This document shows positions 1-4,631 of a stretch of 4,631 nt of DNA, one piece after another. Under the pieces are notes generated by a model that was given only the letters and a program-made list of their open reading frames with translations, had not been told where the DNA came from and ran no database searches. This DNA is from a virus (taxonomy: Duplodnaviria > Heunggongvirae > Uroviricota > Caudoviricetes), in IMG/VR virus record IMGVR_UViG_648276648_000005, positions 1 through 4,631 of that record; one strand, given 5' to 3'. A program made the translations under genes and the position numbers. Positions within the stretch are counted from its first letter, which is position 1. Each line of letters opens with the position of its first letter.

Positions 1-781
1 AAATGCTCTTAGTACAGTACCGGACGATGTCCGGACTCGGCACCCCATGAAATACCTGAATATATGATGTGTTTGCAGATGCTCCCCCCGCGCCACCGCC
101 TGTACCACCCGGTGCAGTTATCAGGGAACCGAAATAAGTTGTGCCACCTTCACTACCTGAATTTCTTCCGGCTCCCCCCCCTTTACCTGCAGCACCGATA
201 ATAACGTTGACTTCGAAATCATTATCAACCTCGAAAAATGCTTCAATAAATGCACCGCTCAATCCAGCTCCGGCTGTTGCCTGCTGATTTGCTGTTGTTT
301 CAGGAACCCCACCGCCGCCGCCACCGCCACCAGAGGCAATGACCCTTATCTTTTTTGTCCCTGGTGTTGGGATATATTTTCCAGAGCTTTTAAAAATATT
401 CGTGTTTAACAAACGACCAGAGAATCTGGCTTCTCCCAAACCAAGGTTTTCGAGAGCCGTTTTCACCGTGCCATCCGATTTGATATCACCAAACGGATTC
501 TTGCGGCTCAGGTATTCAACAGCAAACCCCGATCCCAGCAATTCAACAAAACCGGGCAGATCACCATTATCAAGCACATCCCGTTGCGTTTTGTCACTTA
601 CAAACTGGGCCAGAGCTGCAGCAATAAAGCTGGCCTGCCGAATAACCTTATTGACTTGCGCACTGGATGCTTTCCCTGCTGTAAATCCGGATAAAAGCGC
701 AGGCAACGCTTCCCATTCCTCCTGCGACATAACATTGGCATTTTTACCCGTTGCGAATGCTTTAAAGTCATTTTTTGCCAT
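1..781 (-). CDS. Tail fibre protein, N-terminal ~260 codons (gene continues beyond the window start); glycine-rich central region
   Basis: Minus-strand ATG at 781..779 overlaps the stop of the upstream gene. I scanned the frame by hand and found no stop down to position 2. The ORF track omits it, presumably because it has no in-window stop. Translation begins [33 protein letters not shown] and later contains a Gly8 run and further GGxGG motifs typical of phage fibre proteins. Its position right after the baseplate genes fits a fibre gene. Confidence 0.75.
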
Positions 782-1461
782 CAGAGTAATACTCCCCATG
801 CCCCTACATCAAAACCACTGATGAATTCGTTATCCATATCAAAACCAAAAAATTTTGAACCTTCCGATGGGGTTTCCACCGAAGGTGTTTCAATGCCACC
901 CGCCCACACCCCGGCGGCTTTTACTGTGAGATATCCCTGTTTAATTGCAGCAATTAACTCACGCGATACATCTGAAATATCAGTATCAGGAAAGACCCAG
1001 ACCGATATCGTCATGTCCTGGTTATCGACAATCTGCATTCGCAGCCCGGATCCTGCTGTTGCCGCGTCAAGAATTGCCGGAAGCGAATCATTCCGTCCGT
1101 CCCAGTTATTAATCGCAATCTTCGCTTTAAGAATGACACGATAAGTTTCATCGCTGAGATACATGTATCCAGAATCAGGATCATATGGCCCCTGCCATAC
1201 CCCCTGATCATATCCAAGCCCGTCGGTATCCCAGCTGAAATAGACACCTGAGATAGGCTGGCTGACAACACGGCTACGTCCGATCCACAATCCCAGAATG
1301 TCAAGTTGCACACCAACCGCAGAGTCAATATCAAATGCAGTAATCAGCCCTCTGGTGGCAGCCGCAACATCAATAAGCGGCCGGGTCATCAGATCAACAT
1401 GCGCAAGAAATTTAGGTTTGGTGGCGTGGTAGTTCGTGATTAGTTCGGTGTATTTGCTCAT
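781..1461 (-). CDS. Baseplate/tail protein, Mu gp48-like (e14 YmfQ-like, DUF2313-type)
   Basis: 226-aa ORF whose start overlaps the stop of the J-like gene (ATGA at 1458..1461) and whose stop overlaps the fibre start at 781. Size and position immediately downstream of baseplate J match the gp48/gpI-type wedge protein. The family assignment is from gene order and recollection, not a search. Confidence 0.7.
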
Positions 1462-2657
1462 GACTCCACCGTTATAACGATATTTTCCGGGGTACAGGAC
1501 GCAGATTCGTTGTATCTGATATCAATGTTTGATGACGACAAAGCCCCCGGGGATTTCCCAATCGTCAGTTCCTGAATATCGTAATAGCGTGCATTCCCGC
1601 CACTCACCACGCCAAGATTGGCCGGTGAGTAAATGCGACTTAAAAGGACTGAATCACCAATCGTCAGACTATTGATATAGTCGGAAATAGCCTGCTGGAT
1701 CTGCTGCCCTATCTGTGAGGTATAACCCGTAAAAACTTTTAATTTAATCCGGGCATAAACAGGTACATCACTGGAACGCGAGAATTTGATTACATGGGGA
1801 TTGCCGTATTTATCCGGAACCGTAACGGATGTTGTACCGTGAGTGGCTGTCCCCTGACCTTTATTCCCTCTGATAGCCTGAGCAATATCCGTCACATCAC
1901 CGCCATCCACAATTACAGCAACAGAGTGTGGTGGTAACCCGTTACCGTCCTCCGAACCAGTATCGTTTTCATAGAGTTTGTGGCGGGTTACACCGGTAAC
2001 ATTAGAAACAGCACCATCCAGTGCTTCAAATGGGGTTATTGATGGCAATGCAACACTTTGCGACTGGCGGATACGTAACTCCGCGTCAGTTTCTGCCGGA
2101 GTGCCCACAGTAGCTGCAGCAGGATTGGTTACCGAAACCCAGCCACGGGTTGGCGTATTAATTTCAGTGATAGTTCCAGCCAGCGCCGCCACTGCACCAC
2201 TGACGGAACATGTTGCGGTCACCATCACTGTACCATCCACGCCGACCACCACTGAAGCAGGCAAACGCCATATCACATTATTACTGTCTTTCACGCTGCC
2301 ATTAATGATGGTTGTTCCGGCAGTTCCTGTAAGAAGCAAATCAACCGTAGAATTCGTCGCGCCTTTACGTGAAATACCATTTATTTTCACGTTACTGGTC
2401 AGTGCGGCCCCATAGCCGGTTGCTGGTGAAAAACAGTTGTAGACAGTTATCGCCATATTATTGGCATCATGAATCGCCAGCGCCATCAGAGCCACCATCT
2501 GACCGTCTTTACTGTCCGGTTCGAGGTAGGCATCACTACCATAAATCTGCTGAAAATAGCTAATCAGGGTGCTGAGTATCGTCTGATAATCAGGCGCACT
2601 GATCCCCTCCGCGGTTACCTTTGCAGATAAACCGAGAGAATCAAGGTTCAGAGCCAT
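1458..2657 (-). CDS. Baseplate J-like protein (Mu gp47 / P2 gpJ family)
   Basis: 399-aa ORF, the largest in the cluster, with a Thr/Gly/Val-rich beta-type composition. It lies between the small gp46-like and gp48-like genes, and its start at 2657..2655 overlaps the upstream stop (TAATG). Confidence 0.8.
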   Translation of the reverse strand: MALNLDSLGLSAKVTAEGISAPDYQTILSTLISYFQQIYGSDAYLEPDSKDGQMVALMALAIHDANNMAITVYNCFSPATGYGAALTSNVKINGISRKGATNSTVDLLLTGTAGTTIINGSVKDSNNVIWRLPASVVVGVDGTVMVTATCSVSGAVAALAGTITEINTPTRGWVSVTNPAAATVGTPAETDAELRIRQSQSVALPSITPFEALDGAVSNVTGVTRHKLYENDTGSEDGNGLPPHSVAVIVDGGDVTDIAQAIRGNKGQGTATHGTTSVTVPDKYGNPHVIKFSRSSDVPVYARIKLKVFTGYTSQIGQQIQQAISDYINSLTIGDSVLLSRIYSPANLGVVSGGNARYYDIQELTIGKSPGALSSSNIDIRYNESASCTPENIVITVES

Positions 2658-3010
2658 TACGCCTCCGATGTAACAGTCGTTATTCCATAGAGAGTGTCGA
2701 TTTCAGCGGAAAACATGACACGTCGGGTCGTGGTATCCACCGTCGTATTGAAAGAGAGGATTGATTTAACGCCCTGCGTTTCGAGGATGCGCTTACGGAT
2801 CGCCAGGTTGTAAGTTTCTGGTTTTTGCCTGCCCAGCACGGACTGGATCCACGGTGTTCCCTCTGTGGTATCAAGAAACCATTGCCCATACCACAATTCG
2901 AATCGCGTTTTCACAGCCTGCGCTACGGCCTCAGGCGAGTTAATCAGCCAGGTGTCATCACCGCTGCCAAAGGTGTAATCGCCATCGGCGTCTTCACGTC
3001 TGTATCGCAT
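2657..3010 (-). CDS. Small baseplate protein, Mu gp46-like (W-type wedge subunit)
   Basis: 117-aa ORF sitting between the spike and J-like genes, with overlapping stop/start codons at both ends. The call is by size and synteny. Confidence 0.65.
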   Translation of the reverse strand: MRYRREDADGDYTFGSGDDTWLINSPEAVAQAVKTRFELWYGQWFLDTTEGTPWIQSVLGRQKPETYNLAIRKRILETQGVKSILSFNTTVDTTTRRVMFSAEIDTLYGITTVTSEA

Positions 3011-3762
3011 CAGTTTACCCCGTCGGTACTGCTTCCACCACGCTGAACACCACCATGAGTGTGTGTATCATCGATTGGCTTGCCATTAGCCTTCACGCTC
3101 CCCAAAAACTCAACAGCACCAGTGATTTTTGAAGCCACACCAGAAACCACAGACCCCACCATGCCCCCCATCCAGGTTAACAGGCCATGAATGGTTACTT
3201 TCTCAGAAAAATCAGCCAGAGGGGCAACCACATCAAGACCACCTGGAGCGACAATTTTAATTTTCCTGGTATCAGGATTAAGCTCAAAATAGGTGCTGCC
3301 GTCATCACTACGCAACTGTGTGGCACTGGTATTAATACCGCTAATCTTCCTTGCCTGCGACTGGGGACCGACAATACAAAACGCATCCGATAAATCATGC
3401 ATTCTGTCATCGACCGACTCCTGTATCCCGCCACTCTGCCACCAGAAATCAATACAACGATCGGCAAAAATCACCAAACATTCATCACCGGCTTTAACTG
3501 GGAACGTTAGCGTACATCCTCCGCCGCGCGGGAATACCACTGGCACATCCACCAGCAATGGGTAATTTTTGGTAATGCGGTTGCCGTCATTATCCTTTTC
3601 AACCGAACGGATAGCAGGCTGCACAACTGCCGTCACCGCATCAGGATCGAATGACTGAATAATGCCAGGCAAGGCGACACGGATCTGGTTCTTTGTTGTT
3701 TCCCGTTCAGATTTGAATGTTTCGGCAAGGTCGCCGCTGCGGGTCTGGTCAGATACTGCCAT
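3010..3762 (-). CDS. Baseplate central spike/assembly protein (Mu gp45 / P2 gpV-like) with a His-rich C-terminal tip
   Basis: 250-aa ORF with a GGAG ribosome-binding site 8 nt upstream of the ATG at 3762..3760. The N-terminal half has an OB-fold-like pattern (LVDVPVVFPRGGG...DECLVIFADRCIDFWW). The C-terminus carries DDTHTHGGVQRGG, resembling the metal-binding apex of spike proteins. Confidence 0.7.
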   Translation of the reverse strand: MAVSDQTRSGDLAETFKSERETTKNQIRVALPGIIQSFDPDAVTAVVQPAIRSVEKDNDGNRITKNYPLLVDVPVVFPRGGGCTLTFPVKAGDECLVIFADRCIDFWWQSGGIQESVDDRMHDLSDAFCIVGPQSQARKISGINTSATQLRSDDGSTYFELNPDTRKIKIVAPGGLDVVAPLADFSEKVTIHGLLTWMGGMVGSVVSGVASKITGAVEFLGSVKANGKPIDDTHTHGGVQRGGSSTDGVN

Positions 3763-3781
3763 TTAGTAGGCTCCAGAAAGC

Positions 3782-3804
3782 AAAAAACCCGCCGAAGCGG
3801 GTTT
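3782..3804 (-). terminator. Rho-independent terminator downstream of the 131-aa ORF
   Basis: On the minus strand the sequence is AAACCCGC-TTCG-GCGGGTTT followed by TTT: a perfect 8-bp stem with a UUCG tetraloop and a U-tract, 18 nt after the ORF stop at 3822. On the plus strand the stem is followed by only three T, so it is effectively unidirectional. Confidence 0.75.
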
Positions 3805-3821
3805 GATAACGTTAATTTTAT

Positions 3822-4217
3822 TCATGAAACTCTAGCAGACTTTAGCTGTTCCCAGCGCTCAAAATAGAGTTCAGCAGCCTCGATTGCATCCTGTCCCATC
3901 TCTTTCGAAACAGTCACATTCGTCAGATCATAGTCAGCTTCATTTCTAGCATCCCGCCACTGGCGAAGTACGAAAGCTAGGGATTTCAGTGTATTTGTCG
4001 GGTATGGCTCTGATTTGCACTCTGAGGGCGTTGACATATAACCCACAGTATTTTTGTGATGCTCATGGGTAAAATGCGGTATGGCAGTAAGTGAGCTAAT
4101 AGACTCATGTAACATACTGTAATACGCCCTTGAGATAGCGCTTCGAAATCCACTCTCAATATTTTCAGACAGACATAATCGAGCGGTATCGAGAATCTGA
4201 TTGCTAGTTACCGACAT
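3822..4217 (-). CDS. Hypothetical protein, possibly HEPN-like (candidate orphan toxin/defence cargo gene)
   Basis: 131-aa ORF with a GGTGA ribosome-binding site 6 nt upstream of the ATG at 4217..4215 and its own terminator. Hand-counted GC is about 44% against about 52% for the neighbouring baseplate genes. The protein looks all-helical, with an N-terminal pattern (ARLCLSENIESGF-RSAISRAYYSMLHESISSL) and a C-terminal RDARNEADYD resembling HEPN motifs. The functional call is inference only. Confidence 0.6.
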   Translation of the reverse strand: MSVTSNQILDTARLCLSENIESGFRSAISRAYYSMLHESISSLTAIPHFTHEHHKNTVGYMSTPSECKSEPYPTNTLKSLAFVLRQWRDARNEADYDLTNVTVSKEMGQDAIEAAELYFERWEQLKSARVS

Positions 4218-4231
4218 GGTAGCTCACCCCC

Positions 4232-4260
4232 TGACCTGCTCCCCGTTGATTAGTACACCC
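4232..4260 (+). repeat. Putative left terminal inverted repeat (IRL) of the IS element; inner boundary approximate
   Basis: Begins with TGACCTGC. The right end is outside the window, so the IR length and the target-site duplication cannot be confirmed. Confidence 0.45.
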
Positions 4261-4273
4261 CGATGTTAGTAAT
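4246..4273 (+). promoter_or_regulatory. Candidate orfA promoter (-35 TTGATT, 16-nt spacer, -10 AGTAAT) inside the IS left end
   Basis: TTGATT at 4246..4251 and AGTAAT at 4268..4273, upstream of a GAGGA ribosome-binding site at 4291..4295 and the orfA ATG at 4303. This is hexamer matching by eye only. Confidence 0.3.
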
Positions 4274-4302
4274 GTCTTCATAAGCCACATGAGGACATCC
4301 CC

Positions 4303-4566
4303 ATGAAGAAGCGTTTTTCCGACGAACAGATCATCAGTATTCTCCGCGAAGCCGAAGCTGGGGTACCCGCCCGTGAACTCTGCCGCAAGCATGCCATTTC
4401 CGATGCCACGTTTTACACCTGGCGTAAGAAGTATGGCGGTATGGAGGTGCCTGAAGTTAAGCGCCTGAAGTCGCTTGAGGAAGAGAACGCCAGACTCAAG
4501 AAGCTGCTTGCCGAAGCCATGCTGGATAAAGAGGCGCTTCAGGTGGCTCTTGGGCGAAAGTACTGA
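4303..4566 (+). CDS. IS3-family transposase OrfA (HTH DNA-binding domain plus leucine-zipper region)
   Basis: 87-aa ORF MKKRFSDEQIISILREAEAGVPARELCRKHAISDATFYTWRKKYGG...LEEENARLKKLLAEAMLDKEALQVAL. The helix-turn-helix and heptad-leucine pattern is characteristic of IS3/IS407 OrfA. GAGGA ribosome-binding site 7 nt upstream. Confidence 0.9.
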   Translation: MKKRFSDEQIISILREAEAGVPARELCRKHAISDATFYTWRKKYGGMEVPEVKRLKSLEEENARLKKLLAEAMLDKEALQVALGRKY

Positions 4567-4631
4567 CGACAGACCAGAAGCGGGAAGCCGTGATGTTGAT
4601 GTGTGATGCGACCGGTCTGTCGCAACGTCGT
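4530..4631 (+). CDS. IS3-family transposase OrfB, N-terminal part (-1 frame relative to orfA; expressed as OrfAB by frameshifting; partial)
   Basis: The -1 frame is open from 4530 to the window end and reads ...KVLTTDQKREAVMLMCDATGLSQRR, a typical OrfB N-terminus. It has no start codon of its own, which implies fusion to OrfA by frameshift. Confidence 0.7.
4557..4622 (+). promoter_or_regulatory. Programmed -1 ribosomal frameshift signal: A_AAG slippery motif plus downstream stem-loop
   Basis: A_AAG at 4557..4560 is the last Lys codon of orfA, followed by a 6-nt spacer containing the orfA stop. Then 4567..4575 CGACAGACC pairs perfectly with 4614..4622 GGTCTGTCG (9 bp) across a 38-nt loop. Confidence 0.55.

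Follow-up and report, generated by a model that had tools for sequence, protein, structure and literature searches.

An ISSen4-marked deletion in an Escherichia coli prophage that probably orphans the second gene of a two-gene moron

Introduction

Deletions flanked by insertion sequences (IS) and lacking target duplications are a standard route of prophage decay, and morons, as defined for lambdoid phages, are promoter–gene–terminator units lying between late genes. Both descriptions are relevant to the stretch of DNA analysed here (hereafter the window), the 4,631 nucleotides (nt) at positions 1 to 4,631 of IMG/VR record IMGVR_UViG_648276648_000005, in which the left end of an insertion sequence, ISSen4, faces a small open reading frame (ORF) of 131 amino acids (aa) whose product is predicted to adopt a HEPN fold. 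ISSen4, a member of the IS407 group of the IS3 family, is 1,221 bp long (PMC5088012), and outward promoters of IS407-group elements have been mapped with 3'-terminal IS fragments (PMC3281130).

In HEPN/MNT modules (HepT/MntA, type VII; PF05168, UPF0332) the HEPN protein is the small downstream gene of an overlapping bicistron, and the MNT partner carries the signature hG[GS]x9-13Dh[DE]h. In the AF0298-like HEPN-T proteins and in lactococcal AbiV, the motif His is absent and an alternative His has led to the proposal of an alternative active site (PMC3710099). HEPN proteins also occur as accessory genes of temperate phages, such as HepS of Gifsy-1 and Tha of Staphylococcus aureus phages, which are held inactive and triggered by tail proteins of incoming phages (PMC13043305, PMC11087260).

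Here, we compare the window with intact relatives and with a sister contig that continues past its end. We consider it likely that a complete 1,221-bp ISSen4 begins with its left inverted repeat at position 4232 and marks a ~22.9-kb IS-associated deletion in a myovirus-type prophage whose E. coli integration site lies between yfhL and yfhH, and that the endpoint of this deletion, in codon 249 of a partner gene, orphaned the HEPN gene, which in the intact prophage would be the distal gene of a two-gene moron in the slot between the baseplate hub and spike genes.

Results and discussion

Matches of the window to IS-free E. coli relatives all end at exactly 4231 (27 of the 30 matches listed, with local BLAST in agreement), and because these relatives stop matching there, the IS end is placed at 4232. 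The left inverted repeat (IRL) of ISSen4, TGACCTGCTCCCC, begins at this base with the terminal TGACCTGC, and the remaining sequence to 4631 is 100% identical to annotated ISSen4 copies from their base 1 onward. Membership of the element is further supported by orfA with its helix-turn-helix (HTH) domain, by orfB with rve domains (read in the sister contig), by the IS1222-type frameshift element and by the RefSeq note 'programmed frameshift'. The first-pass annotation of the window had set the IS terminus at 4232, 15 bp from the start codon of the 131-aa ORF. Its boundary is upheld by BLAST, ISSen4 identity, Rfam and Pfam, but its spacing is one base too long: the ORF lies on the minus strand with its ATG seen as CAT at 4215-4217, and as coordinates 4232 and 4217 differ by 15, 14 nt separate them (4218-4231, ggtagctcaccccc; GGGGGTGAGCTACC on the gene strand). 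Within these 14 nt lies the Shine–Dalgarno sequence of the HEPN gene, GGGGGTGAG; it and the ATG are intact, and the ORF carries no mutation. The stop codon of the displaced upstream gene ends at position 4204, and the 28 nt at 4204-4231 are therefore what is left of that gene: a single base of codon 249, then codons 250-257 (GVSYHVGN) and the stop; the IS breakpoint thus falls between base 2 and base 3 of codon 249. As a structural feature rather than a statistical pattern, the junction is not amenable to a chance test.

Exact look-up of the 131-aa protein retrieved a 1.03-Mb contig, GCA_949768545.1 (hereafter L005), which matches window 1-4631 with zero substitutions and three 1-nt indels, all at 31-54. 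The first-pass annotation had suggested that the right IS end and its target duplication would be found beyond 4631; in L005 the right end, GGGGGCAGGTCA, is indeed present, joined directly to the interior of an IS2 and lacking a duplication. At 1,221 bp the L005 element is full-length and has 0 mismatches to the copy in IAI1; its flanks are CCCC and ATTT, whereas ACTC/ACTC flank the IAI1 copy. The missing 4-bp duplication means that the L005 ISSen4 is not a simple insertion, and leaves the identity of the element unaffected. It differs from a typical copy also in joining two distant points of one prophage, one of them inside IS2. Beyond it come a 5'-truncated IS2 and then prophage early genes, and the transposase genes of both ISSen4 and IS2 are transcribed away from the HEPN ORF.

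For comparison with L005 we used the whole prophage of strain JNEC-KY208 (L014), in which this IS2 is found at the identical site, between a 174-aa early gene and a cI-like repressor gene. As this insertion is common to the intact and the deleted prophage, JNEC-KY208 serves as a direct pre-deletion reference. L005 1-8765 corresponds to L014 16740-25504 (99.98%) and L005 from 9987 onward to L014 from 48454 onward (100%); because both flanks are collinear with L014 and in unchanged orientation, 22,949 bp are absent from L005. An inversion in place of a deletion was ruled out by the same retention of order and orientation. IS2 spans L014 24402-25732, and its first 228 bp were lost, the remainder occupying L005 7665-8765. 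Among the absent genes are those for cI- and cro-like regulators, the VapE primase and the Q antiterminator; holin, endolysin, both terminase subunits, portal and head proteins; and sheath, tube, chaperone, tape-measure, Dit-like, plug and hub proteins of the tail. On the cassette side, a small 115-aa ORF, the cassette promoter and codons 1-248 of the partner gene are gone. With its regulatory, lysis, head and most tail genes missing, the prophage is defective. That the tail module is truncated at the junction, as the first-pass annotation had recognised, is confirmed by the missing sheath, tube, tape-measure, Dit-like, plug and hub genes. It had, however, taken the loss to be one of upstream tail genes, which understates its extent, since the repressor, Q, lysis, terminase and head genes went too, and the Mu gp43/gp44 equivalents it named do not describe this prophage, whose tail domains are of E217/PhiTE/Pam3 type.

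Since no target duplication is present, the deletion would have arisen either through recombination between two directly repeated ISSen4 copies or as a deletion accompanying transposition. We regard as very unlikely a simple insertion of ISSen4 at the 3' end of the partner gene, with the prophage intact beyond it and the truncation being a product of the window's contig end or of a collapsed repeat in L005. The window does stop inside a multi-copy IS, 400 bp from its left end, in the manner of short-read contigs, but the 1.03-Mb L005 continues across ISSen4 and IS2 to early genes of this prophage, no duplication being present, and a second similar place is present in the index. The 250-aa product that a simple insertion predicts (...QLHTG, with a TGA supplied by the IS end) is also absent, by exact look-up, from a collection of 15 billion proteins. 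Several points nevertheless weigh against the deletion: the far side of the IS is known from one sister assembly only, L005, rather than from the window's own record, and a collapsed assembly of two ISSen4 copies there has the same very low probability; no intermediate was found in that protein collection; and the same ISSen4/IS2 junction was found in none of the complete E. coli genomes searched. Seven full-coverage matches to the junction were rejected, as they come from an unrelated locus in which full-length IS2 and ISSen4 lie adjacent to each other.

A separate ISSen4 arrangement was seen in strain ABWA45 (L016), where two inverted copies (4374-5594 and 7434-8654) surround a split autotransporter gene and an IS2. 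The pair shares the 4-bp flank GAAG on opposite copies and ends, a pattern that suggests an ISSen4-mediated inversion at a locus unrelated to the prophage.

The arrangement that preceded the deletion was recovered from IS-free loci, as the first-pass annotation had anticipated in proposing that a promoter or partner gene had been displaced from the ORF. In JNEC-KY208 (L001), 99.9% identical over window 1-4231, and in ten other loci aligned to the window, a 257-aa ORF lies directly upstream of the 131-aa ORF, and its stop overlaps the 131-aa ATG by 14 nt (ATGTCGGTAACTAG). The cassette reads, in order, sigma-70-like promoter, 257-aa gene, 131-aa gene and intrinsic terminator, and occupies a slot bounded by the spike gene and by a small ORF of 102-116 aa that comes after the baseplate hub gene (phrog_196). 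A gene of 257-261 aa directly upstream of the ORF is found also in Enterobacter, Rahnella and Yersinia, the gene pair occupying the same slot at 53-69% identity. In the loci read through, the extent of overlap between the two genes is 14-41 nt; as called in Yersinia they do not overlap, the 114-aa gene call there probably being truncated. A HEPN-like ORF still accompanies the partner gene in Yersinia and in a distantly related pair of 258 and 134 aa (hhalign 1.5e-49 and 2.4e-28).

The 257-aa gene is preceded by a 96-nt spacer bearing a sigma-70-like site (TTGACG-17-CACAAT); the spacer is otherwise divergent between genera, and promoter-like hexamers fall in the same alignment columns in three of them (TTGACT-18-TAGAAT in Enterobacter, TTGATA-17-TAAAAT in Rahnella). 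The promoter scans are consensus matches only, and the counts of sites in L001 were not above chance. The terminator, too, is matched at the equivalent position in Enterobacter and Rahnella by one whose stem and loop sequences differ. The cassette occurs in 27 of 5,426 complete E. coli genomes (~0.5%), intact in all 27, and a further 55 complete genomes share only 44 nt beside the spike gene; its DNA had no match in the INPHARED phage collection. In strain C3728, whose baseplate DNA is 98.8% identical, an unrelated 138-aa ORF occupies the hub-spike slot (L015 9376-9792), so the slot behaves as a variable cargo site. In silico, then, the cassette has the properties of a moron: its own promoter-like site and terminator, a position between late structural genes, and absence or replacement in close relatives. 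It departs from the lambdoid type in consisting of two translationally coupled genes rather than one, and it is predicted to be expressed in the lysogen. The intact prophage has a gene for a Q-type antiterminator, through which late transcription would be able to run past the cassette terminator.

Between the hub gene and the cassette of JNEC-KY208 lies the 115-aa ORF (L001 14071-14418), with a signal-peptide-like N-terminus (MKRMKLVLTISLLFSCSAAFA). It matches phrog_3443 only, to which PHROGs assigns no function, and may represent a tail-module gene for a secreted protein or a lipoprotein.

RefSeq leaves the 131-aa ORF unannotated in several genomes, and in L001 and L002 the Prokaryotic Genome Annotation Pipeline (PGAP) leaves the interval from the spike gene to the 257-aa gene empty. 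That the ORF is not a real gene is nonetheless scarcely credible: its product matches phrog_5176 over its full length (E 9e-40), 28 cluster representatives share 32 invariant residues, its start, Shine–Dalgarno sequence and gene overlap are conserved, and its AlphaFold2 (AF2) model is a confident, all-helical, HEPN-like structure (predicted local distance difference test score, pLDDT, 89.6). Homologues at 51-91% identity are present in Citrobacter, Klebsiella, Cronobacter, Rahnella and Aeromonas, among others. The modelled four-helix up-and-down bundle has as its top Foldseek match 2hsb, the AF0298 structure (probability 1.00, TM 0.68/0.71), followed by other HEPN domains. By itself the window protein has no Pfam match; PF05168 was matched by 7 of 22 family members (best E 3.8e-5), and a profile of the family matched HEPN proteins in PDB (9xbd, E 2.6e-6; 2hsb, E 0.002). 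No relevant literature was found under the PDB codes 9xbd and 9xbc.

Residues R91, N92, D95, Y96, H53 and H54 are invariant in the family, with H53-H54 situated between helices 2 and 3. Rx4Y, with Tyr in place of His, stands where the canonical Rx4-6H RNase motif would be (R91-N-x-A-D-Y96; in full, R91-N-E-A-D-Y96). From sequence and model, the protein fits the AF0298-like variant with a putative alternative active site, sharing with it the conserved R-N, the lack of the motif His and the alternative His between helices 2 and 3 (PMC3710099). AbiV falls in the same active-site variant class as AF0298 (PMC3710099), but differs from the window protein in size and genomic context; the window protein had no match in PADLOC-DB at E<=1, where the presence of an AbiV model was not confirmed.

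With HEPN/MNT modules the cassette shares the fold, with 2hsb as best structural match, and the position of the HEPN gene as the small downstream member of an overlapping pair. It differs in lying in a phage tail module and in its 257-aa TPR-like partner with no NTase motif, and it is not an HEPN/MNT system because it lacks an MNT as partner. For the partner's C-terminal domain an MNT-like fold (GS...D) was considered and rejected, as the spacing is wrong and the second acidic residue is missing. The cassette resembles HepS and Tha, compared by description, in placing an HEPN protein among the accessory genes of a temperate phage. HepS, in contrast, acts solo, has a canonical R100-H105 and lacks a conserved partner, whereas here an Rx4Y protein is strictly co-conserved with its partner and has no known defence phenotype.

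The N-terminal part of the 257-aa protein is a TPR-like array; a small alpha/beta domain makes up the C-terminal part, which ends in a conserved tail. The protein matches phrog_17809, listed as of unknown function, and had no match in Pfam, NCBIfam or PADLOC, searches of which with both cassette proteins returned nothing or noise (Caprin-1_dimer, E 0.025); the sole matches in a BFVD structure search were two viral proteins, uncharacterised and similar in length and fold. Its family has ~120 representatives at 50% identity, mostly of ~240-270 aa. The C-terminal LHTGVSY varies little or not at all among 30 homologues, while its codons differ synonymously between genera; that HTGVSY is kept at the amino-acid level through synonymous changes indicates protein-level selection, besides the role of this DNA in carrying the downstream Shine–Dalgarno sequence. 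AlphaFold models the tail (L001 13202-13232) as disordered (pLDDT 32), and this peptide is a candidate for docking onto the HEPN protein. Clustering at 90% identity places 131-aa HEPN members together with the 257-aa protein, which suggests that some assemblies call a fused or frameshifted product bridging both cassette genes.

The deletion removed the native promoter, the translational coupling and the partner, and left the orphaned HEPN gene its Shine–Dalgarno sequence and terminator. A scan of window 3700-4631 found no sigma-70-like site on the ORF strand, and the 3 kb upstream of the ORF in L005 contain one weak promoter-like site, ~580 bp away, fewer than shuffled sequences give; no terminator was found in those 3 kb. 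One very weak candidate on the ORF strand, AAGACA-18-ACTAAT preceded by a TG, was picked out by eye in the left end of the IS; it fails the scan criteria and was discarded. Because no outward promoter is detectable at the IS end, the HEPN ORF is probably silent, or else transcribed only by read-through from the 174-aa early gene. The first-pass annotation had offered an outward IS promoter as a driver of the ORF, for which we found no support. Unregulated activation of the ORF by an outward or hybrid promoter at the ISSen4 terminus, with the HEPN protein acting alone, therefore appears unlikely to us. IS407-group elements can drive neighbouring genes from outward terminal promoters (PMC3281130), and here the Shine–Dalgarno sequence and ATG are intact and the ORF unmutated; yet the reported promoters come from 3' fragments, whereas this ORF faces the 5' end (IRL) of ISSen4 and diverges from its transposase gene, and the 14-nt spacer is too short for a hybrid -10 and leader.

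As to function, the cassette would be a lysogen-expressed accessory module, most likely a conflict module of toxin/immunity or abortive-infection type; its two co-conserved, overlapping genes are as expected of such modules. More tentatively, the 257-aa and 131-aa proteins may form an undescribed two-component conflict system, carried as a tail-module moron by Enterobacterales myovirus prophages. In such a system, the TPR-like protein would serve the HEPN effector as regulator or sensor, holding or triggering it, possibly through its HTGVSY tail, and the pair would act in abortive infection, in superinfection exclusion or as a toxin and its immunity protein. The Tyr in place of the motif His tells against this interpretation, as does the lack of support from defence and toxin libraries (no PADLOC match at E<=1, and function unknown in PHROGs for both proteins). 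A live alternative is a phage-specific, non-defence role, with which the occurrence of the pair only within the tail-module slot is compatible. The specific form of this alternative, that the pair is a lineage-specific tail or baseplate assembly factor and not accessory cargo, we hold to be improbable, although the pair sits in the same tail-module slot at every locus inspected, matches no defence model, and includes a TPR protein, a class that often serves as assembly chaperones. An assembly factor would not be expected to have its own conserved promoter-like site and terminator within a late operon, to be confined to 27 genomes with just the 44 shared nt in 55 more, or to be replaced, as in C3728, by an unrelated ORF beside near-identical baseplate DNA. 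We also know of no structural role for the HEPN fold in tails.

The remaining genes of the window, all on the minus strand, belong to the baseplate and tail (Table 1). Three 1-nt indels distinguish window 31-54 from both L005 and L001 (an extra C at 31 and at 38, a missing C at 54) and shift the frame of the tail-fibre gene past residue 242. Because they lie beside the window end, they look like contig-end or homopolymer errors, not biology. A further C lies within a C-run at 174 relative to L001. A mechanical 62-aa ORF on the minus strand (4204-4392) runs antisense to the start of ISSen4 orfA, through the IRL and into the GVSYHVGN remnant, stopping 14 nt within the HEPN ORF; no evidence of its expression was found.

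Table 1. Features of the 4,631-nt window, with coordinates, strand and supporting evidence
Feature	Position	Strand	Evidence or remark
Tail-fibre gene, 5' part, Gly-rich	1-781	minus	Start ATG at 781 overlaps wedge gene stop
Baseplate wedge protein (DUF2612/Phage_Wedge1)	781-1461	minus	Pfam PF11041, E 3.8e-47
Baseplate J-like protein	1458-2657	minus	Pfam PF04865, E 6.8e-16
Sheath-initiator (gp25/W-like) protein	2657-3010	minus	RefSeq annotation and PF10934 on identical gene in sister loci
Membrane-puncturing spike protein, Apex motif	3010-3762	minus	Pfam PF18352, E 4.2e-44; PF18946
Intrinsic terminator closing the two-gene cassette	3785-3804	minus	Stem AAACCCGC/GCGGGTTT, then T run
131-aa AF0298-type HEPN-fold protein, cassette gene 2, orphaned	3822-4217	minus	phrog_5176, fold, family profile
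28-nt remnant of 257-aa partner gene	4204-4231	minus	Alignment to L001 13202-13229
ISSen4, left 400 bp (IS3 family, IS407 group)	4232-4631	plus	Identity to annotated copies, Pfam, Rfam
ISSen4 orfA, 87-aa, HTH_Tnp_1 (PF01527)	4303-4566	plus	Pfam
IS1222-type frameshift element (IS1222_FSE)	4533-4631	plus	Rfam RF00383, 125 bits

Conclusions

The junction is a case of ordinary IS-associated prophage decay, in which a single step by an active IS reduces a complete prophage to a defective remnant, and short-read contigs that end in an IS can hide such deletions. The more useful part of the finding is the cassette itself, an uncharacterised and co-conserved pair of a TPR-like protein and a non-canonical HEPN protein, found in several enterobacterial genera. 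If the pair is indeed a defence or toxin-immunity system, the deletion strain would be a natural 'effector-only' mutant and genetic control, showing that the HEPN protein is harmless without its partner, or silent, and the cassette would add a non-MNT class of partner to the HEPN-T proteins.

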